In this document: positions 2-64,000 of the stretch, piece by piece | How positions within the stretch are numbered: position 1 is the first letter of the stretch | Layout of the letters: every line of letters starts with the position of its first letter | Virus record (IMG/VR): IMGVR_UViG_3300025838_000019 | Coordinates: 38,640 to 102,639 of that record | From: a virus | Lineage: Duplodnaviria > Heunggongvirae > Uroviricota > Caudoviricetes | Direction: 5' to 3' (one strand) | Length of the DNA: 64,000 nucleotides | Position numbers and translations under genes: made by a program | Notes under the pieces: generated by a model | Seen by the model: the letters and a program-made list of their open reading frames with translations, nothing else | Told to the model about the DNA's origin: nothing | Database searches by the model: none

Positions 2-1582
2 GACTCTACAACAAATCCAACATATACATTCCAGTTGCCAGATAATGATATTGATACCTCTACTTTGTTGGTACAAGTTCAACAATCAAGTTCAAATTCT
101 TCTTATACAACTTACACCGGTTCAACAAACTATTTGACACTAGACGGCACATCGACTGTTTATTTCTTGCAAGAAAGTTTGAACGGAAACTATGAAATTT
201 CTTTTGGTGACGGTGTTCTAGGTAAAAAATTGGCTGATGGTAATATTGTCAATGTGTTTTACTTGATTACACAAGGCACTTCTGGTGCAGGTGCAAACAA
301 TTTTGTTCTAACAGATTCTGTTTCTGGATTTGGAACAACAGTCATCTATGGTTCTGTGGCAGCAACAACTGGCGGTGAAAAAGAATCTATCAGTTCTATC
401 AAATACACAGCACCTAAAGCCTATGCTGCACAGAATCGTGCGGTTACAAACGATGACTACATCACTTTGATTCAACAAAACAATGCAGGTTTTTCATTCG
501 ATGCAGTTAACGTTTGGGGTGGCCAAGAAAATGATCCGCCAGTTTATGGCCAAGTTTTTGTTTGTTTAAAACCTACCGGCACATACAAATTAACAGAAGT
601 ACAAAAACAATCCATCATTAAGAACGTTATTCAACCAATTTCAATGATGACTGTTAGCCCAAATATTGTTGATCCTGATTACAACTATATTCAGGTCAAC
701 TCAAACGTTCTATATGATCCAAAGAAAACAAACTATACTGCAAGTCAAATTTCACAAATCGTATCTGCTTCAATTCAACAATTTGCAACAAGAACATTGA
801 ATACTTTTAATAGTACATTTACTGCGGCTGATTTGATTTCTTCTATTCAAAATGCAGATGCTTCTATTGTTACTAACGATACAAAAATTAGAATTCAGAA
901 AAAATTCTATCCTATATTCAATACACCAACAACATACTCATTCTCATTCAACACACCACTACAAAGAGGTATTTTGTTGAGTGGTGTTGGTAGTTCTCCT
1001 GCTATACAAATTCAAGACCCACAAGATGCAACACAAACTTTGGATGGTGTTTACGTTGAAGAAACACCAAGTAGTACCGCAGGTGTGTCTTCAATTCAGT
1101 TGTTGAATCCTGGTTATTCTTATACGCAGACACCAACAGTAACAATTCTTGGTGATGGCACAGGCGCTACAGCCGAAGCAACACTTGTTGCTGGAGTTAT
1201 AACAGGAATTACAGTTACAAATCCTGGTGTAGGTTACACACAAGCTACTGTTGTTATCACAAACGCAACAGGCGACAATTTAGGTTATGGTGGTTCTGCT
1301 GTTGCGGTTCTAGAAGGACAGTATGGTACACTAAGAACATACTACTATAACTCAAACAATGTAAAAACAATATTAAATACCAATGCAGGTACAATCGACT
1401 ATAACAACGGTATTGTTACACTAAAAAACTTTACACCCGTAAATGTTGATAGTGCTTTAGGTGAATTGACAATCTCTGCTGTACCAGCTTCAACAATTAT
1501 CAATTCTTCATTGAATAAAATTTTGACTATCGATCCATTTGATTCAAATGCAATTCTAGTTAACGTAACAGCCAAGACATGA
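2..1582 (+). CDS. gp6: Baseplate wedge subunit gp6 (5' end truncated by window edge)
   Basis: Frame is open from position 2, so the TTG at 35 is probably not the start. T4 gp6-like motifs YEISFGDGVLGK, SIKYTAPKAYAAQNRAVT.DDY, VWGGQENDPP.YG.VF, GTIDYNNG; lies directly upstream of gp7. Confidence 0.9.
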   Translation, partial: DSTTNPTYTFQLPDNDIDTSTLLVQVQQSSSNSSYTTYTGSTNYLTLDGTSTVYFLQESLNGNYEISFGDGVLGKKLADGNIVNVFYLITQGTSGAGANNFVLTDSVSGFGTTVIYGSVAATTGGEKESISSIKYTAPKAYAAQNRAVTNDDYITLIQQNNAGFSFDAVNVWGGQENDPPVYGQVFVCLKPTGTYKLTEVQKQSIIKNVIQPISMMTVSPNIVDPDYNYIQVNSNVLYDPKKTNYTASQISQIVSASIQQFATRTLNTFNSTFTAADLISSIQNADASIVTNDTKIRIQKKFYPIFNTPTTYSFSFNTPLQRGILLSGVGSSPAIQIQDPQDATQTLDGVYVEETPSSTAGVSSIQLLNPGYSYTQTPTVTILGDGTGATAEATLVAGVITGITVTNPGVGYTQATVVITNATGDNLGYGGSAVAVLEGQYGTLRTYYYNSNNVKTILNTNAGTIDYNNGIVTLKNFTPVNVDSALGELTISAVPASTIINSSLNKILTIDPFDSNAILVNVTAKT

Positions 1583-57662: not shown

Positions 57663-58048
57663 TGTTAGACCTATTCAAAGAAATCATTCCGTCAATTCTT
57701 ACAAAAGGTAAGTCAGTCTTTCCTGAAGATTCAGATTACAAAGACTACGTTCCTTTTGTGGTGAATCGTGCTTTGTCTTATCATATGGACTGTGTGTTGT
57801 ATGTCAATGATTTGAACCAACATCCATCCATGGATAAGGATATGCAATATCATTATCTTCTAAATAGTATTAGGCCGATGAAACGTAAGTTCCAACCATG
57901 GCAGAAACCATCGGCAGATAAAGATATTGATTGCGTCAAAGAATACTTTGGTTACAATAACCAAAGAGCCAAAGAAGCCTTGGCTATTCTGACTAAAGAA
58001 CAAATCGCTGAAATAAGAATAAAAACAGATAAAGGCGGAGTGAAATGA
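57662..58048 (+). CDS. gp62: Clamp loader small subunit gp62
   Basis: YVPFVVNRALSY, QYHYLLNSI, VKEYFGYN..RAKEAL.IL. Confidence 0.9.
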   Translation: MLDLFKEIIPSILTKGKSVFPEDSDYKDYVPFVVNRALSYHMDCVLYVNDLNQHPSMDKDMQYHYLLNSIRPMKRKFQPWQKPSADKDIDCVKEYFGYNNQRAKEALAILTKEQIAEIRIKTDKGGVK

Positions 58049-58452
58049 AAGATATTTCCAGTTTAATTGAAGTTACACTGAATGAGAAAGATGATTTCCT
58101 AAAAGTAAGAGAGACACTAACTCGAATTGGTGTAGCTTCCAAAAAAGATAAAACCTTGTACCAATCTTGCCACATTCTACACAAGCAAGGTAAGTACTAC
58201 ATCGTGCATTTCAAAGAGTTGTTTGCACTTGACGGAAAACCAACAGACATTACAGATAATGATTTGTCTCGTAGAAACGCTATTGCAAACTTGTTGCAAG
58301 ACTGGGGCTTGATTGCTTTGGTAAATAAAGATTCAACCAAAACACCAGAACCAATTTTCTTGTCACAGGTGAAAATCTTGTCTCATAAAGAGAAAGGTGA
58401 ATGGCAATTAGTACCGAAATATAACATCGGAAATAAGACGAAAGCTGTATAA
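58045..58452 (+). CDS. regA: Translational repressor RegA
   Basis: DDFLKVRETLTRIGVAS, LYQSCHILHKQGKYYIVHFKELFALDG, LVPKYNIG. Confidence 0.97.
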   Translation: MKDISSLIEVTLNEKDDFLKVRETLTRIGVASKKDKTLYQSCHILHKQGKYYIVHFKELFALDGKPTDITDNDLSRRNAIANLLQDWGLIALVNKDSTKTPEPIFLSQVKILSHKEKGEWQLVPKYNIGNKTKAV

Positions 58453-58614
58453 ATAATTGTATCTCAGTCCCATCGGGATGGGAAAAAGGTGCTCCACCTA
58501 CCTTAGGAGCGTATTAAAACGGGTGTACGTCATCACCGCTGGAAAACGTAACCAGCACCAACGATATGCCTTCGGGGTATCAAAAATTTAACTTGCTTAT
58601 TTAAGGAGAAAACT
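58448..58614 (+). promoter_or_regulatory. Late promoter plus multi-hairpin 5' UTR with ROSE-like SD hairpin
   Basis: TATAAATA at 58448-55; five short hairpins; CTTGCTT(58592-98) pairs with AAGGAG(58603-08) leaving a bulged G. Confidence 0.55.
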
Positions 58615-59040
58615 ATGAACGACATGTTCAACTTCCATCGCTTCGACCCTTTCACAATCGGTTTCACCGATGTTTTTGAAGAACTTGAAAAGGCTTCAAA
58701 AAAACTACAGAAAGCGGCATTCCCTCCATACAATATCAAACAGTTGTCCGAAAACGAATACGTCATTGAAATGGCTGTTGCTGGTTTTGGTAAACAAGAT
58801 ATTGAAGTTACTCTAGAAGGTAACAAGCTTGTCGTTAAAGGCAACGCTAAAGAGGATGAACCAGATACTTTCATCTACAAAGGAATTGCTAACCGAAACT
58901 TCACACATGAATTCACTATTGCCGATAAGGTAGAAATTGAAAATGCCGAATTGGTAAACGGTATGTTGAAGATAGGTTTGTCTAATATGGTAAAGATGCA
59001 AGACGCCATCAAAAAGATTCCCCTATTCTCTAAAGAGTAA
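58615..59040 (+). CDS. Small heat-shock protein Hsp20 (IbpA-like)
   Basis: FPPYNI, YVIEMAVAGF, YKGIANRNFTHEF, AELVNGMLKI. Confidence 0.95.
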   Translation: MNDMFNFHRFDPFTIGFTDVFEELEKASKKLQKAAFPPYNIKQLSENEYVIEMAVAGFGKQDIEVTLEGNKLVVKGNAKEDEPDTFIYKGIANRNFTHEFTIADKVEIENAELVNGMLKIGLSNMVKMQDAIKKIPLFSKE

Positions 59041-59044
59041 TAAG

Positions 59045-59082
59045 AAAAGGGTCTTGACAGACCCTTTTTTTTCATGTATAAT
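59045..59082 (+). terminator. Intrinsic terminator overlapping a sigma70 promoter
   Basis: AAAAGGGTC-TTGACA-GACCCTTTT plus T run; the loop TTGACA is a -35 box 17 nt upstream of TATAAT (59077-82). Confidence 0.8.
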
Positions 59083-59091
59083 GGTGATATT

Positions 59092-59280
59092 ATGAAAAAA
59101 TTAGACTTTATTAAAATGCGAGTGGTTTCTTCAAGAGAAATTGTGTACACATTCAAACACTGGCCAACCCAAGAAATTGATGGTGTGGAGTTTTTGTCTG
59201 TCTGTAAACGTGAACCTTCACAAGAACTGACACAAGTATCACATTGGATGCGTAAAGATTCTTTGGAAAGAGTGAAATGA
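59092..59280 (+). CDS. Hypothetical protein
   Basis: ATG downstream of the promoter above; overlaps the next gene. Confidence 0.55.
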   Translation: MKKLDFIKMRVVSSREIVYTFKHWPTQEIDGVEFLSVCKREPSQELTQVSHWMRKDSLERVK

Positions 59281-59854
59281 TTCCACGTAAAATTGCAACC
59301 GAAGAAGATGCGAACCGGTTATACGACCATTTTCTAGAAGATATTGTTGGTCATGACCGTTATCTGAGGTTTGGTTATGCTGCATCCGATGCTAATATAA
59401 TTGACTACTTAGATAAGGCCTTTGATGAATTTGGTTTCAAGAACATGTGGTTTATTGTTGAACACGAAAACGCTGGGGTTGTTGGCTCTGTTCATGTTAC
59501 TTTTTATCCACTAAGCAAAGATGGTGATTATTCTGCTGAAATGGGATTCACCGTTTCACCAGAATTTCGTGGCCAAGGTCTAGGCCAAGAGTTATTCATT
59601 CGTGGTGCAACATGGGCAATGTCTAAAGGCGCAAAGACTCTATTCACTCAATGCCTATCAGATAATAAGGTAATGCAACACATCGCCAAGAAAAATGGCA
59701 TGACTGTTGTAACGATTGCACAAGGTGAAAAAGAAGCCACTATTCAGGCAACAAAAGGTAAAATTCAATCCTACTTTGATGATAAGTACTTTGATAATCT
59801 TGCGTTTGTTGATAAGGCGGTATCTTTACAACAACAAATTTTTAAATCATTATT

Positions 59855-59864
<10 letters not shown>
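59277..59864 (+). CDS. GNAT-family acetyltransferase
   Basis: DRYLRFG, AEMGFTVSPEFRGQGLGQEL acetyl-CoA-binding motif A, DNKVMQHIAKKNG. Confidence 0.9.
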
Positions 59865-59931
<67 letters not shown>

Positions 59932-59949
59932 TTTTTGAAGGAGTATATT

Positions 59950-60171
59950 ATGGATATGGATGTAGCAGCAGAAGTGCTTGCAGGTAGTATTTTGACTGGG
60001 TTATCTCTTATTATTTTTGTATCTACTGTTGTAGTAATTAACAACATCATACACCGATACTGGAAGCCAATTCAGATGTTTAAGTTCTTAGAGTACCCAC
60101 CATCGGTACCGGAAGAATCAAAAATTACCCAAAGTAACGACACTATCACCACGATTAAAAATAACAATTAG
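59950..60171 (+). CDS. Small membrane protein
   Basis: aggag SD; hydrophobic segment LAGSILTGLSLIIFVSTVVVI. Confidence 0.6.
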   Translation: MDMDVAAEVLAGSILTGLSLIIFVSTVVVINNIIHRYWKPIQMFKFLEYPPSVPEESKITQSNDTITTIKNNN

Positions 60172-60197
60172 ACTTTTGATGAAAATAGTGATATACT
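60169..60197 (+). promoter_or_regulatory. Sigma70-type promoter
   Basis: TAGACT-17nt-TATACT with extended -10 TG, upstream of rubrerythrin. Confidence 0.6.
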
Positions 60198-60241
60198 ATC
60201 ATAAGTAATTATTTGATTGCTAAACTTTATAAAGGAAAAAT

Positions 60242-60691
60242 ATGTCAGTTACAATGAAAAATCTTGAGAGTGCATTGGCAGGCGAATCAATGGCTCACAT
60301 CAAGTACCGTTATTTTGCTAAGTTGGCTCGTGCAGAAGGCTTTGAAGAAGTTGCAAAACACTTCGAACACACTGCTGACCAAGAAATTCTCCATGCATGG
60401 GGTCATTTAGAGTTACTAATTGGTAAACCAACAACTAAGAAATGCTTAGAACTTGCCATTGAAGGTGAGACACATGAATTCACAACCATGTATCCTGGTT
60501 TTGTTACCGATGCACAACAAGAAGGTCATCGTGCAGTAACAGAATTCCAAGAACAGGTTGACGAGTCTCAACAACATGCGGAACAATTCAAGAAAGTTCT
60601 AGAGATGGCTGAGAAACGTTTTGCTGCATTGGCTAAAGTTGAAAAACGTCATGCAGAAGCATATCAAGTTAAACTAGGAGAAATGAAATGA
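60242..60691 (+). CDS. Rubrerythrin (di-iron four-helix bundle)
   Basis: NLESALAGESMA..KY.YFA, EILHAWGH, AIEGETHE...MYP, ESQQHA. Confidence 0.92.
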   Translation: MSVTMKNLESALAGESMAHIKYRYFAKLARAEGFEEVAKHFEHTADQEILHAWGHLELLIGKPTTKKCLELAIEGETHEFTTMYPGFVTDAQQEGHRAVTEFQEQVDESQQHAEQFKKVLEMAEKRFAALAKVEKRHAEAYQVKLGEMK

Positions 60692-60819
60692 GCGAAAGAA
60701 TTTACGTTTGTGTAGTTTGTGGCCACCAATTGTCTGAAGCAGACTGGTTGAGTCTTCCTGATGAAGTCAACTGTCCAGAATGTGGTGTTTCTAAAAATGA
60801 TTATGTGTTGATGGAATGA
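60688..60819 (+). CDS. Rubredoxin-like protein (43 aa, absent from the ORF track)
   Basis: MSERIYVCVVCGHQLSEADWLSLPDEVNCPECGVSKNDYVLME: CxxCG...CPxCG; ATGA overlaps at both ends. Confidence 0.85.
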   Translation: MSERIYVCVVCGHQLSEADWLSLPDEVNCPECGVSKNDYVLME

Positions 60820-61250
60820 AAGAAAAGTTTCGTAATGCGTATATGAGGGTGGCAGAGACTTTCGCAGGATTGTCTTCTGCCAGACGACTTCATGTTGGTG
60901 CCATTATTGTCAAAGATGACCGTATCATAAGTATTGGTTATAACGGAATGCCATCCGGTTGGAACAATAATTGCGAGTTTGAATTCACTAATGAACAAAC
61001 AAAAATAACAGAACTGGTAACTAAAGCTGAGGTTTTACATGCTGAAACAAATGCGATTGCAAAGTTGGCTAAATCGACCGAATCTGGTGATGGCGCTACT
61101 ATGTTCGTTACCCACGCTCCTTGTTTGGACTGTGCCAAGTTGGTATATCAGAGTGGCATCAGTAACGTGTTCTATCGTGATGCTTACCGGAATGATAGTG
61201 GAATTTTATTCCTTGAAAAAGCCGGAGTTAAGGTAGAGCAGATTCGATAA
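60816..61250 (+). CDS. dCMP deaminase
   Basis: VGAIIV, GYNGMP, HAETNAI, HAPCLDC zinc motifs. Confidence 0.93.
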   Translation: MKEKFRNAYMRVAETFAGLSSARRLHVGAIIVKDDRIISIGYNGMPSGWNNNCEFEFTNEQTKITELVTKAEVLHAETNAIAKLAKSTESGDGATMFVTHAPCLDCAKLVYQSGISNVFYRDAYRNDSGILFLEKAGVKVEQIR

Positions 61251-61281
61251 ATAGGTCGAGGACAACTCCTTGGAGAAACTG

Positions 61282-61818
61282 ATGCAACTAAGTATCATAA
61301 AATGTCCCGATAAAGAAAGATTTCGTCCTTTTGTGAAGCGTGCAACACACTTCTTTGCAGAAGAACTAATGACTAAAAATATGTTGGAAAACATACACTT
61401 AACCATCAAGTTTGATAAATCACTTGAGGTTTGTGGATACGCATCTGTTGAGGAATACACATACTCTGGTAAAGCCAGAGAATTTTTGGTAGAAGTAAAT
61501 CCAAATATCGGTGCAAGAGAAATCTTGGAAACCATTGCACATGAAATGGTGCATGTCAAACAGTATGCTTACAGTGAAACCAACGAACGCCTAACCAGAT
61601 GGAAAGGTGAATATATATCTGATGATGTAGATTACTACAGTCAACCGTGGGAAATTGAAGCTTATGGTATGGCAGTAGGCCTACTTAACAAATTTGTGGT
61701 GAAAGAAAAATTGTGGGAAGTCTTTGAAGGTATTGCCAATCCAGACTCTCCAATTGAAAAGATACCTTTAGGATGGAAACGTTATGCAGAAGATTGTGTT
61801 AGTGACAGGAGGATTTGA
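61282..61818 (+). CDS. Zinc metallopeptidase-like protein (HExxH)
   Basis: LETIAHEMVHVKQY and YYSQPWEIEAY; ggag SD before the ATG at 61282. Confidence 0.75.
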   Translation: MQLSIIKCPDKERFRPFVKRATHFFAEELMTKNMLENIHLTIKFDKSLEVCGYASVEEYTYSGKAREFLVEVNPNIGAREILETIAHEMVHVKQYAYSETNERLTRWKGEYISDDVDYYSQPWEIEAYGMAVGLLNKFVVKEKLWEVFEGIANPDSPIEKIPLGWKRYAEDCVSDRRI

Positions 61819-62545
61819 TCCTCTACATTCAGGTCACATTCAATATTTTAAAGAAGCCGCAAAACTCGGCGACTTATTGATTGTTGGTTTGAATAGTGAT
61901 GCATGGTTAGAACGCAAAAAAGGTCGTGCGTTTATGCCTTTGAATGAACGCAAAACAATCATAGAACACCTTTCAATCCTTGATGCAGTTATCACATATA
62001 ACGATGATGACAATTCAAGCAGAGCTGCAATTTTAAAAGTAAGAGAAATCTGGCCAGATGCAAGAATTATTTTTGCAAACGGTGGTGATAGAACACAATC
62101 AAATATTCCAGAAATGGATGTTGTAGATGACAACCTTGAATTTGTTTTTGGTGTAGGTGGTGAGAATAAGAAAAATTCTTCTTCATGGATTCTAAAAGAA
62201 TGGAAAGCACCAAAGACTGACAGAGCTTGGGGTTACTATCGTGTTCTACATGAAGTACCTGGAATGAAAGTCAAAGAGTTGACTGTAGAACCTGGCAAAT
62301 CTTTGAGTATGCAAAGACATTCACATCGTGCTGAGTATTGGATCGTTAGTGAAGGTTGTTGTGTTGTGAATAGTATGATGAATGGTGGTTATGCATTACC
62401 TCCTCTGTTGTTAAACAAACACGATGAATACAAAGTGCCTGTAGGTTCATGGCACCAACTAACTAATCCATTCGATCATCCTTGCAAGATTGTAGAGATA
62501 CAATATGGTCTTGAATGTGATGAAGAAGATATCGAAAGAAAATAA
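61784..62545 (+). CDS. Cytidylyltransferase-like domain fused to a mannose-6-phosphate-isomerase-type cupin
   Basis: GGFDPLHSGH (HxGH), VGLNSD, ANGGDR; C-terminal RAWGYYRVL...KVKELTVEPGKSLSMQRH.HRAEYWIV. Confidence 0.88.
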   Translation: MQKIVLVTGGFDPLHSGHIQYFKEAAKLGDLLIVGLNSDAWLERKKGRAFMPLNERKTIIEHLSILDAVITYNDDDNSSRAAILKVREIWPDARIIFANGGDRTQSNIPEMDVVDDNLEFVFGVGGENKKNSSSWILKEWKAPKTDRAWGYYRVLHEVPGMKVKELTVEPGKSLSMQRHSHRAEYWIVSEGCCVVNSMMNGGYALPPLLLNKHDEYKVPVGSWHQLTNPFDHPCKIVEIQYGLECDEEDIERK

Positions 62546-62570
62546 TTTAATAAATATACCAAAATAGTTG

Positions 62571-62599
62571 TTGCCAAGGCTCAAAAGTTCCTATATAAT
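62571..62599 (+). promoter_or_regulatory. Sigma70-type promoter driving the tRNA-array leader
   Basis: TTGCCA-17nt-TATAAT; a late-type AATAAATA lies at 62549-56. Confidence 0.8.
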
Positions 62600-62632
62600 A
62601 CAAACATTGAAAAATTTTTAGAAAGAAAATTC

Positions 62633-62758
62633 GTGTCTCTCATATCCCATAAACCCTTTTCGTTGCAACCAGAGTATCGCACAGTTACAAATAATTGTGG
62701 TGATAGCTCATGGGCGATTCAAAAAGGTGGGTTTTGTGTAGAGGGATGGGACGAATAA
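62633..62758 (+). CDS. Putative leader peptide (41 aa, GTG start)
   Basis: MSLISHKPFSLQPEYRTVTNNCGDSSWAIQKGGFCVEGWDE; purine-rich AGAAAGAAAA upstream; embedded in attenuator-like structure. Confidence 0.55.
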   Translation: MSLISHKPFSLQPEYRTVTNNCGDSSWAIQKGGFCVEGWDE

Positions 62759-62785
62759 CAAAGTTCTAAAAAAGATACCAAACGC

Positions 62786-62820
62786 AAAACCCTAGTCAGA
62801 GAAATCTACTAGGGTTTTTT
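62786..62820 (+). terminator. Intrinsic terminator (attenuator 3:4 hairpin)
   Basis: AAAACCCTAGT(62786-96)/ACTAGGGTTTT(62808-18) with inner AGA-GAAA-TCT; T6 run followed by GTTTGTTGTTTT. Confidence 0.85.
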
Positions 62821-62824
62821 GTTT

Positions 62825-62875
62825 GTTGTTTTGAAACAACAAGTGTATTGACAAGAATCTCGGTTCTGATACAAT
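62825..62875 (+). promoter_or_regulatory. tRNA-array promoter with upstream palindrome
   Basis: GTTGT-N6-ACAAC (62825-40), TTGACA (62848-53), 16 nt, TACAAT (62870-75). Confidence 0.75.
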
Positions 62876-62882
62876 ACACACA

Positions 62883-62898
62883 TGTTCTTTAAAAATTT
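62883..62898 (+). promoter_or_regulatory. rrn-type boxA antitermination element
   Basis: TGTTCTTTAAAAATTT; first 12 nt match E. coli rrn boxA TGCTCTTTAACA at 10/12. Confidence 0.65.
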
Positions 62899-62916
62899 GT
62901 AGAGTCAAAAAATTGT

Positions 62917-62992
62917 TCCCTGTTCGCCTAGTGGTCTAAGGCACCGGTCTTTGAAATCGGTATCATTGGTTCGAATCCAATACGGGGTGCCA
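62917..62992 (+). tRNA. tRNA-Gln(UUG)
   Basis: Cloverleaf; anticodon arm CCGGT-CTTTGAA-ATCGG; T loop TTCGAAT; G73-CCA; U1:U72 mismatch. Confidence 0.9.
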
Positions 62993-63067
62993 TATAAAAA
63001 CACATTACTCTGCTGTCTTTTACGGTGGAGAGGATTGTCTATTACGGTCCGTTAGTGTGTTTCTATA
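62993..63067 (+). ncRNA. Structured three-way-junction RNA between two tRNAs
   Basis: Closing stem with 14 of 15 pairs (62993-63007/63053-63067) enclosing two hairpins with near-identical loops. Confidence 0.55.
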
Positions 63068-63068
63068 T

Positions 63069-63160
63069 GGAAGCGTGGTCGAGTCTGGTTTATGGCAGCA
63101 GTCTTGAAAACTGCCGGCTCAGGAATGGGTCCGTGAGTTCGAATCTCACCGCTTCCACCA
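63069..63160 (+). tRNA. tRNA-Ser(UGA)
   Basis: Acceptor GGAAGCG/CGCTTCC, anticodon arm GCAGT-CTTGAAA-ACTGC, long variable arm, encoded CCA. Confidence 0.92.
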
Positions 63161-63166
63161 AACAAC

Positions 63167-63258
63167 GGTGAGTTGGATGAGCGGTTTAAATCGGCAACCT
63201 GCTAAGTTGTTGTGTGTAGAAATATGCACCGTGGGTTCAAATCCCACACTCACCACCA
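63167..63258 (+). tRNA. tRNA-Ser(GCU)
   Basis: Acceptor GGTGAGT/ACTCACC, anticodon arm GCAAC-CTGCTAA-GTTGT, long variable arm, encoded CCA. Confidence 0.92.
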
Positions 63259-63261
63259 AAT

Positions 63262-63353
63262 GCCTCGGTGGCTTGGTAGTCAGAGAGTCCTTATAAGACT
63301 TTTAGCGCCAGATTAGCGTTCTTGAGAAGGTTCGATTCCTTCCCGAGGTACCA
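63262..63353 (+). tRNA. Atypical tRNA with UAU anticodon (nominally Ile)
   Basis: Acceptor GCCTCGG/CCGAGGT, T arm GAAGG-TTCGATT-CCTTC, loop CT-TAT-AA, encoded CCA; shrunken D arm and long variable arm. Confidence 0.75.
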
Positions 63354-63368
63354 AATGAAAGTGAGATT

Positions 63369-63605
63369 ATGTGGAAAGTTTATTTGAGTGATCGTGATTG
63401 TTTTTTCAAAACATTGGATGAAGCAATGAAGTTTGCAACCAATGAAACAAACGAATTTGTAACCATCACCGATGGAACCACGGAAATTGTGGGTAAGTTT
63501 GGTGTTGATGCAGTAGAAAACAAAGTTCTACCGGATGGTGGAACATACGATTGGACTATGAGGCGTGATGAAACACACCGTAGTTCAAGGAAAAAGTTAG
63601 TGTAG
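63369..63605 (+). CDS. Hypothetical protein inside the tRNA array
   Basis: 78-aa ORF with a weak SD (gtgag); stop codon overlaps the first bases of tRNA-Cys. Confidence 0.55.
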   Translation: MWKVYLSDRDCFFKTLDEAMKFATNETNEFVTITDGTTEIVGKFGVDAVENKVLPDGGTYDWTMRRDETHRSSRKKLV

Positions 63606-63677
63606 GCATGACCCGAATGGCTAGGGACTGGATTGCAAACTCAGTATATGCAGGTTCGACTCCTGTTGCCTACTCCA
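63602..63677 (+). tRNA. tRNA-Cys(GCA)
   Basis: Acceptor GTAGGCA/TGCCTAC, loop TT-GCA-AA, U73 discriminator (Cys identity element), encoded CCA; imperfect anticodon stem. Confidence 0.88.
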
Positions 63678-63678
63678 A

Positions 63679-63729
63679 GTTGTAAAAAAACAACAAGACG
63701 GTTGACAAACTATCTGGTTGTGATACAAT
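63679..63729 (+). promoter_or_regulatory. tRNA-array promoter P1 with upstream palindrome
   Basis: GTTGT-N6-ACAAC (63679-94), TTGACA (63702-07), 16 nt, TACAAT (63724-29). Confidence 0.75.
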
Positions 63730-63766
63730 ACATTCATGTTTTGAGAAATCGAAACAAAAAACAGAT

Positions 63767-63817
63767 GTTGTAATCATACAACAACTGGTTGCCAAGTAAG
63801 TGATGTTCTGATACAAT
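63767..63817 (+). promoter_or_regulatory. tRNA-array promoter P2 with upstream palindrome
   Basis: GTTGT-N6-ACAAC (63767-82), TTGCCA (63789-94), 17 nt, TACAAT (63812-17). Confidence 0.75.
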
Positions 63818-63824
63818 ACTTACT

Positions 63825-63840
63825 TGTTCTTTAAAAATTT
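63825..63840 (+). promoter_or_regulatory. rrn-type boxA antitermination element (second copy)
   Basis: TGTTCTTTAAAAATTT, part of a 27-nt exact repeat of 62883-62909. Confidence 0.65.
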
Positions 63841-63852
63841 GTAGAGTCAAAT

Positions 63853-63927
63853 GCACGATTCGTCTATCGGTTAGGACGCTGCCCTTTCAAGGCGGAAAGA
63901 CGAGTTCGATTCTCGTATCGTGTACCA
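63853..63927 (+). tRNA. tRNA-Glu(UUC)
   Basis: Acceptor GCACGAT/ATCGTGT, anticodon arm CTGCC-CTTTCAA-GGCGG, encoded CCA. Confidence 0.92.
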
Positions 63928-64000
63928 TACTAAAACACATTGGGTTACCAACTCCAGTAGGTGACTGGCAGAGAATTTCAGCAGCCGTGCTGACTCTGGC

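Follow-up and report, generated by a model that had tools for sequence, protein, structure and literature searches.

The amino acid operon leaders of Escherichia coli and Salmonella (trpL, hisL, leuL, thrL, pheL, and ilvGMEDA) carry a promoter-proximal short open reading frame (ORF) that overlaps the first of four RNA segments. These segments form mutually exclusive 1:2, 2:3, and 3:4 helices ahead of the operon, an intrinsic terminator is among the outcomes, and the position of the ribosome decides between them. Here, we describe a locus with a predicted plan of this type in front of a transfer RNA (tRNA) array in a virus of the class Caudoviricetes (IMG/VR record IMGVR_UViG_3300025838_000019). 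The locus lies in a stretch of 64,000 nucleotides (nt), hereafter called the window, which corresponds to bases 38640-102639 of a 166,639-bp viral contig. The element of interest, a short leader with its own promoter and terminator, is located immediately upstream of the array, toward the end of the window. An earlier reading of this DNA from its letters alone (the original prediction) had proposed that the leader is an attenuator that senses tRNA depletion.

The tRNA genes of phages are usually explained as a means of compensating for codon usage or of resisting anticodon nucleases and the depletion of host tRNAs. To our knowledge, little is known about how their expression is controlled. A full-text literature search identified no paper on leader-peptide attenuation of phage or bacterial tRNA arrays.

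RESULTS

A candidate attenuator at the head of a phage tRNA array

We read the element, with moderate confidence, as a ribosome-mediated (leader-peptide) transcription attenuator that stands at the head of the tRNA array and reports on the whole charged-tRNA pool. Such an element would probably make extra tRNA transcription dependent on how slowly ribosomes decode. The more specific proposal is that the leader senses all amino acids, such that a shortage or cleavage of almost any host tRNA would stall the pioneer ribosome and lead to transcription of the replacement tRNA set; we give this proposal about an even chance. The computations presented here show the conserved architecture, the covariation of helices, an ORF that is maintained, the amino acid coverage, and the link to the tRNA array. 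The parts of the leader in the window are as follows.

62571..62599, plus strand: P1, the leader promoter (TTGCCA-17-TATAAT, 11/12 consensus matches)
near 62606, plus strand: predicted transcription start of P1
62606..62632, plus strand: predicted 5' untranslated region (5'UTR), with a purine-rich AGAAAG (62620-25) 7 nt upstream of the GTG
62633..62758, plus strand: leader ORF of 41 codons with a GTG start (MSLISHKPFSLQPEYRTVTNNCGDSSWAIQKGGFCVEGWDE), spanning segments 1 and 2, its stop 24 nt before segment 3
62642..62656, plus strand: segment 1, the predicted anti-antiterminator partner of segment 2 (codons 4-8, ...ATATCCCATAAACCC), from the class A RNAalifold helix and the nascent fold
62669..62713, plus strand: internal domain, in which CCAGAGT (62669-75) pairs with CTCATGG (62707-13) and encloses an apical hairpin at 62676-62705
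62729..62739, plus strand: segment 2, the predicted antiterminator 5' strand (GGGTTTTGTGT, codons G-F-C-V), from duplex energy and covariation
62782..62792, plus strand: segment 3 (ACGCAAAACCC), the predicted antiterminator 3' strand and also the terminator 5' arm
62786..62821, plus strand: intrinsic terminator (segments 3:4 and T-run), from folding energy and stem covariation

In the proposed mechanism, P1 would drive synthesis of a short RNA, and segment 1 (codons 4-8) and segment 2 (codons 33-36) would both lie within its 41-codon ORF. On RNA free of ribosomes, segments 1 and 2 would pair, the 3:4 terminator would form, and transcription would stop at about 62820. A ribosome that follows RNA polymerase closely and arrives at segment 2 would allow the terminator to form as well. 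A ribosome held on the early codons, or a queue behind a stalled one, would instead leave segment 2 free to form the 2:3 helix; no terminator would then arise, and the polymerase would continue through a boxA-like element into tRNA-Gln and the remaining array. Because the leader offers about one codon per amino acid, many of them rare in the phage, a shortage of almost any charged tRNA would raise transcription of the array. The result would be a supply-and-demand loop in which slow decoding calls up a tRNA set for all 20 amino acids. A general loop of this kind is the most economical interpretation because leader and array both span nearly or all of the amino acid alphabet. We infer that stalling would induce read-through and that tRNA shortage or anticodon nucleases would be the natural trigger.

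Relatives of the leader were collected by three routes. We scanned with the 3' part of tRNA-Gln and, separately, searched viral and metagenome contigs with a conserved 27-mer that precedes it; nhmmer on the 27-mer loci then provided 20 plus 25 distinct homologous leaders. The third route used a leader-internal pattern only (segment 2, gap, segment 3), with no tRNA-side sequence, and recovered 58 further leader loci together with 6 chance matches. In total, about 100 related loci on viral and lake metagenome contigs encode 65 different leader peptides, and promoter, ORF, terminator, and tRNA-Gln appear in the same order throughout. At least one metagenome contig is named for Trout Bog Lake, and the others are assumed from their names to be lake samples. 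Among cultured phages, blastn of 50,697 phage records with three different leaders produced no match; the leader family is known solely from uncultured contigs, which we assign to freshwater T4-like phages.

Terminator and antiterminator helices covary

The terminator that the original prediction placed just before the array was recovered at 62786-62821. It consists of the stem AAAACCCTAGT / ACTAGGGTTTT, an inner AGA-GAAA-TCT hairpin, and a T-run, with a folding energy of -16.9 kcal/mol. A consensus scan of the window did not list this site. A terminator hairpin with a T-run is present in every leader (-12 to -21 kcal/mol), and its stem covaries: both partners have changed in 18 alignment cells, and none of 500 shuffles scored as high for covariation.

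The competing duplex between segment 2 (62729-39) and segment 3 (62782-92) likewise has the predicted 11 bp with one G-U pair. At -18.1 kcal/mol, it is more stable than its dinucleotide shuffles (-10.5 +/- 2.3 kcal/mol; z = -3.4, p = 0.003). Across the family, the 2:3 duplex ranges from -12 to -22 kcal/mol and beats dinucleotide shuffles in 41 of 43 leaders (20/20 in the first set and 21/23 in the second). The terminator arm occurs as CCCT, CCCCT, CCCCC, CCTCT, CCTCA, and GCCCT variants, each with a segment 2 that fits it. When partners are exchanged between classes, 5-9 kcal/mol is lost; segment 2 of leaders L024 and L065, for example, pairs at about -16 kcal/mol with its own segment 3 and at about -7 kcal/mol with that of other classes.

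We counted covariation on a covariance-model alignment because plain MAFFT misaligns one or the other of segments 2 and 3 in divergent classes. Among 40 distinct leaders, 93.9% of the 2:3 cells were paired, compared to 29-56% when the partner was slid, and 38 cells changed on both sides, compared to 0-3 in the slid controls. At one covarying pair, 25 leaders have U-A and 12 have G-C. The signal comes from between-class comparisons since the helix is almost invariant within class A. In some leaders, segment 2 has moved to other codons, and the 2:3 pairing still covaries. The covarying 2:3 and 3:4 helices that had been anticipated for homologous loci are thus present.

Predicted folds depend on ribosome position

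The 1:2 helix CATAAACCC / GGGTTTTGTG is part of the class A RNAalifold consensus and of the nascent-transcript fold of the window. In 36 of 43 nascent-transcript folds, segment 2 finds its partner within codons 2-11, with sequences that differ by class. When we folded the window leader with a 33-nt mask in place of the ribosome, the predicted structure depended on where the mask was placed. The 1:2 helix formed with no ribosome, the 2:3 helix formed when codons 1-8 were covered, and neither formed when segment 2 was covered. The minimum-energy structure of the full-length leader RNA (-69 kcal/mol) always contains the terminator, and the choice must therefore be kinetic, as in the trp attenuator.

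The apical hairpin predicted at 62675-62705 is found in the minimum-energy fold of the window. The inner helix of the internal domain also belongs to the class A consensus, and equivalent hairpins with different sequences are predicted in other leaders; the domain at 62669..62713 may serve as a pause or timing hairpin. The helix TTTTTAGAA / TTCTAAAAA, which had been proposed to close the leader hairpin, fared less well. It is present in the minimum-energy fold of the window, but beyond it only in near-identical members of the subgroup with a 5'UTR, and it is not significant. We rejected it as a feature of the family, as its z score is about -1 to -2 and it is missing in the leaderless majority.

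Promoter and start codon

P1 matches the sigma70 consensus as closely as the original prediction had claimed, and a P1-like near-consensus pair with a 17-bp spacer occupies the same place in nearly every full-length leader with an intact 5' end. Among the exceptions, L117 has a weak -35 element, and in the L032/L082 type, the promoter was read by eye. In most relatives, the ATG lies 6-7 nt past the -10 hexamer, which is at the predicted transcription start, and their mRNA is therefore expected to be leaderless. In the subgroup of the window, by contrast, the 5'UTR is 20-29 nt long and includes a purine-rich element (AGAAAG or AGGAAG), and the start codon is GTG, except for an ATG in L031. About 26 nt of the window 5'UTR are missing in the aligned relatives, and sister variants read AGGAAG or CGAAAG at the purine element. 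By this comparison, the 5'UTR of about 27 nt and the GTG start are acquisitions of the window's subgroup. The earlier caveat of a weak Shine-Dalgarno sequence does not apply to most relatives because their ATG stands 6-7 nt past the -10 hexamer and leaves no 5'UTR.

The leader ORF changes like a leader and not like a protein gene

The predicted 41-codon GTG ORF is open from 62633 to 62758, and an open ORF of 33-45 codons was recovered in every full-length leader examined, as had been expected of homologous loci. The other two frames of the leaders contain 3.1 and 3.7 stops on average. The leader stop codon is always located between segment 2 and segment 3. Codon changes between close relatives (14 overlapping pair comparisons) comprise 159 non-synonymous and 46 synonymous changes with no third-position bias, in line with the low amino acid identity that had been foreseen, and the length and C-terminus of the peptide are free to vary. 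Profile searches of Pfam and PHROG with three diverse members of the peptide family (E <= 1) returned no family. By this pattern of change, the ORF behaves as a leader, unlike a protein gene, and it is probably translated. We also considered the periodicity of indel lengths in pairwise nucleotide alignments of the ORFs, which was too noisy and was dropped.

Several positions recur among the peptides, namely, H, F, S-W, and G-[FY]-C, with varying synonymous codons at H, S-W, and G-x-C. A Gln codon located 2-4 codons past segment 1 is conserved in most classes. Separately, GAGTATCGCAC (62672-62682, codons E-Y-R-T) is conserved at the nucleotide level across otherwise divergent leader classes. 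Because its wobble positions are also kept, this conservation suggests a function of the RNA or DNA itself (for example, as a pause site or within the internal hairpin) and not a peptide constraint.

Leader peptides span nearly all amino acids

In the window, all 19 amino acids other than Met occur in the peptide, which is encoded by 31 different codons beyond the start (32 with GTG), and the first 18 codons all differ from one another. In the long ORFs of the phage, CTC, ATA, CCC, TCG, CGC, GCG, and GGG each rank last or nearly last among their synonymous codons. The composition, codon diversity, and rare codons described in the original prediction all agree with the codon list and with phage codon usage. 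Compared to 40-residue windows of the phage's own proteins, the coverage in this one leader is only modestly unusual (p = 0.034), and it is the recurrence in relatives that makes the feature convincing.

Counted after the start codon, the 65 peptides hold 20 amino acids in 30 cases, 19 in 27, 18 in 7, and 15 in 1. Elongator Met alone is absent in 22 of the 27 peptides with 19 amino acids. The mean coverage is 19.3 of 20, compared to about 15.5 in windows of the same length from the phage proteome, where 19 or more amino acids occur with a probability of 0.5% to 6%. Coverage of the amino acid set, as expected of homologs, is thus kept, with 57 of 65 peptides holding 19 or 20. We then held the conserved residues fixed and grouped the 65 peptides into 16 clusters. 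The Fisher p value was 3e-5 under phage composition and 9e-6 under the family's own variable-position composition, both optimistic given the shared ancestry of the clusters, and 15 of 16 clusters exceeded the null mean.

Individual residues also move. Met appears at about five different positions among close leader variants, and a variant that lost Gln (LQP to LHP) has a sister that reads LHQ. The leaders combine high codon diversity with low codon adaptation (the latter in 19 of 20), and some of their rare codons (CCC and GGG) are forced by the helices. A search of the leaders for a regulatory codon run found none; their 19-20 different amino acids mostly occur once or twice. A comparison of residue conservation between singleton and multi-copy residues (0.55 versus 0.39) pointed in the expected direction, but it is confounded by the split between core and tail and by non-independent pairs and was left unused.

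The downstream array and its own promoter

The features between the terminator and the first tRNA gene of the window are as follows.

62848..62875, plus strand: P2, the predicted promoter of the array itself (TTGACA-16-TG-TACAAT), 27 bases beyond the terminator
62883..62909, plus strand: conserved 27-mer upstream of the first tRNA, shared by related loci
62917..62992, plus strand: tRNA-Gln(UUG), the first gene of the array, from tRNA gene calls

The association of leader and array is strict. Among the loci of the leader-internal scan with at least 220 nt of downstream sequence, tRNA-Gln(UUG) lies within 140 nt and is followed by further tRNAs in 53 of 53. Arrays with enough downstream sequence hold 20-28 tRNAs, always with tRNA-Gln first, and the arrays behind the relatives' leaders serve nearly all amino acids. 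The array of the window extends about 5 kb past the window end and comprises 28 tRNAs by Rfam. With relaxed settings, ARAGORN also calls a tRNA-Ala(UGC) of low score at the position of a canonical Ala gene in relatives, and counting it with the 28 Rfam tRNAs means that the array serves all 20 amino acids.

The original prediction had noted as a caveat that the array has its own promoter behind the terminator. P2 is indeed present in the window and in most loci. The caveat is weakened by 11 relatives from two or three lineages in which P2 is missing and the terminator is only 26-27 nt from the 27-mer. With no P2, these relatives have no nearby entry to the array other than P1 and the attenuator.

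The exact 27-mer, which begins GTTCTTTAAAAATTTGTAGAGT, is present at 62883-62909 and 63825-63851, in each case between the array promoter and the leading tRNA of the unit. A core of 22 nt is matched exactly in 42 viral and 58 metagenome stretches (about 100 loci, L024-L123). It may resemble the rrn boxA of rrn-type antitermination, which we use as a candidate label.

Other elements of the array deserve mention. A palindrome, GTTGT-N6-ACAAC, lies at 62825-62840, between the T-run and the -35 element of P2, and is kept with variation in most P2-bearing relatives; it may represent an operator site or else a second hairpin. Two relatives carry an inserted protein gene, preceded by a good Shine-Dalgarno sequence, between terminator and array (L063, about 547-1039, minus strand; L111, from about 642, plus strand), and there, the attenuator would gate the protein gene too. 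The tRNA-Ala(UGC) gene, which is degenerate and is called only by relaxed ARAGORN, and a tRNA-Lys(CUU) gene, called by Rfam and not by default ARAGORN, lie beyond the window end at G000:C1:103432-103506 and 105261-105335 (L124 2033-2107 and 3862-3936). A 92-nt tRNA-Ile(UAU) called by ARAGORN at 63262-63353 scores 31.2 bits against an Rfam threshold of 29, is non-canonical with a long variable arm, and keeps the same array position in many relatives. Some inter-tRNA spacers (62993-63068 and, past the window end, 64880-64990 and 66530-66620) are bracketed by ATA[TA]AAAACA(C)ATT ... GTGTTTCTATATGG and look like tRNA-sized structured RNAs, and other spacers are bracketed by GGAT...ATCCTGTTG.

Genomic setting

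The contig that hosts the window has a G+C content of about 39%, and the large terminase of this phage is 54% identical to terminases of T4-like cyanomyoviruses. Directly upstream of P1 is a cytidylyltransferase-cupin fusion gene (61784-62545), which is not at this position in the leader relatives. In those, the leader follows a homolog of the 61270-61818 ORF. The relatives of the fusion gene itself lie among sugar modification genes, with no tRNAs near. Synteny via the upstream gene was dropped as a route of comparison: its 21 relatives have no tRNA array or leader downstream, and it is of no use because the fusion gene is an insertion in the phage of the window. Outside the window, ARAGORN also called a permuted gene resembling transfer-messenger RNA (G000:C1:18629-19002) with the tag peptide VNDSKFALAA.

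DISCUSSION

Weighing the attenuator reading

Several of our observations weigh against a leader that senses the whole tRNA pool. Thermodynamically, segment 2 of the window is freed only by stalls within roughly the first 8 codons. In this model, stalls further down would need ribosome queuing or steric exclusion to act, and stalls beyond about codon 12 may be sensed, if at all, through such queuing. The proposed 1:2 pairing recurs at its place in the leaders just described, but its duplex energy is no stronger than that of shuffles, so that positional recurrence is what supports it. In the window, 17 nt separate segment 2 from the stop codon downstream, so that a ribosome terminating there would reach no more than the edge of segment 2. 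The coverage signal owes much to conserved rare residues (H, W, C, F, and Y), which would also be kept in a small functional protein. With the conserved residues fixed, the coverage test was weak on the first 20 leaders (p = 0.015-0.04), and the combined p values for the full set are optimistic because the clusters share ancestry. Elongator Met is missing in 22 peptides, that of the window included. Since there is no regulatory codon run, sensitivity to any single amino acid would be low unless its depletion were severe. Lastly, a strong P2 behind the terminator in most loci, including the window, means that the attenuator would modulate only part of the flow into the array.

Some of these points would fit a real ribosome-dependent attenuator that senses something other than the whole tRNA pool, with the near-complete amino acid set as a by-product. 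The signal could be translation-transcription coupling (ribosome availability, leaderless initiation capacity, or host shut-off), a single codon (for instance, the Gln or Pro codon conserved right behind segment 1), or nascent-peptide arrest. Such a reading draws equally on the attenuator architecture itself. The roughly 8 effective codons of the window model represent few amino acid types, the conserved Gln codon past segment 1 is mirrored by a tRNA-Gln that is always the first gene of the array, and H, S-W, and G-x-C are conserved despite varying synonymous codons. We nevertheless consider it unlikely, though deserving of serious attention, as it leaves aside the coverage excess that persists with conserved residues fixed (p = 3e-5 to 9e-6, 15 of 16 clusters), the different positions of Met and Gln among close variants, and the arrays behind the leaders, which also cover nearly all amino acids.

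Two alternatives remain. An ordinary small-protein gene, with the peptide as its functional product, could have come by chance to lie before the array, with its own promoter and terminator and with pairings that regulate nothing. The ORF is conserved, it carries the recurring H, F, S-W, and G-[FY]-C, and it is bracketed by a strong promoter and a strong terminator, all of which would suit such a gene. The excess of non-synonymous changes (159 versus 46) with no third-position bias, the freely varying C-terminus and length, and the lack of a Pfam or PHROG match would not. A coding role also leaves unexplained the 2:3 covariation, including the cases in which segment 2 was relocated to other codons, and the stop codon that always falls between segments 2 and 3. 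Taken together, these make a small-protein gene quite improbable. The terminated leader (about 215 nt) could also be an abundant small RNA that acts in trans, with the ORF being secondary. A near-consensus promoter with an efficient terminator would yield an abundant, structured short RNA (-69 kcal/mol), and attenuator-derived small RNAs have a precedent: rnTrpL of Sinorhizobium reportedly acts in trans. This RNA has no known target and matches no Rfam family, however, and such a role would not account for an ORF kept in every leader or for a leaderless ATG exactly at the predicted transcription start. A primary role in trans is thus very improbable in our estimation, and it would in any case be compatible with attenuator function.

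If the whole-pool attenuator is real, these would be the first described tRNA genes under translational feedback, with a new leader-peptide design that relies on breadth instead of a codon run. The more than 60 natural variants with compensatory changes are material for an RNA family model and for searches of phages. The element spans only about 250 bp and has near-consensus sigma70 promoters, so that the idea is directly testable.

Comparison with known systems

The mechanism class is known; the novelty lies in tRNA genes as the target, in an all-amino-acid design of the leader, in the leaderless start, and in the occurrence in a phage. In contrast to the amino acid operon attenuators, whose plan it would share, the phage leader has no run and offers each of the 20 amino acids about one codon; its ORF extends through segment 2, and most members are expected to be leaderless. 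The element would also control tRNAs and not biosynthetic enzymes. A cmscan of 58000-64000 against Rfam (E <= 10) returned only tRNAs and chance matches and no amino acid leader or T-box family.

Closer in function are pheST, with its pheM leader, and the T-box riboswitches, in which the state of the tRNA pool sets read-through before a gene of the translation apparatus, as we propose here. However, pheM senses Phe only, and T-box RNAs bind uncharged tRNA without a ribosome through a specifier loop and a T-box motif, neither of which is present in the phage leader. The attenuators of the erm, cat, vmlR, and bmrCD type would resemble it in that a slowed ribosome on a short upstream ORF, with no codon run, switches the RNA structure and activates the genes behind it. 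Unlike the proposed phage element, they depend on a drug for the stall, which is often peptide specific, and many of them act on translation. Finally, a start codon at the 5' end of the transcript, predicted for most members, is shared with lambda cI expressed from PRM and with the leaderless regulatory upstream ORFs of actinobacteria. In the phage family, by contrast, the leaderless ORF would itself be the sensor of the attenuator, and the subgroup of the window has instead a 5'UTR of about 27 nt and a GTG start.

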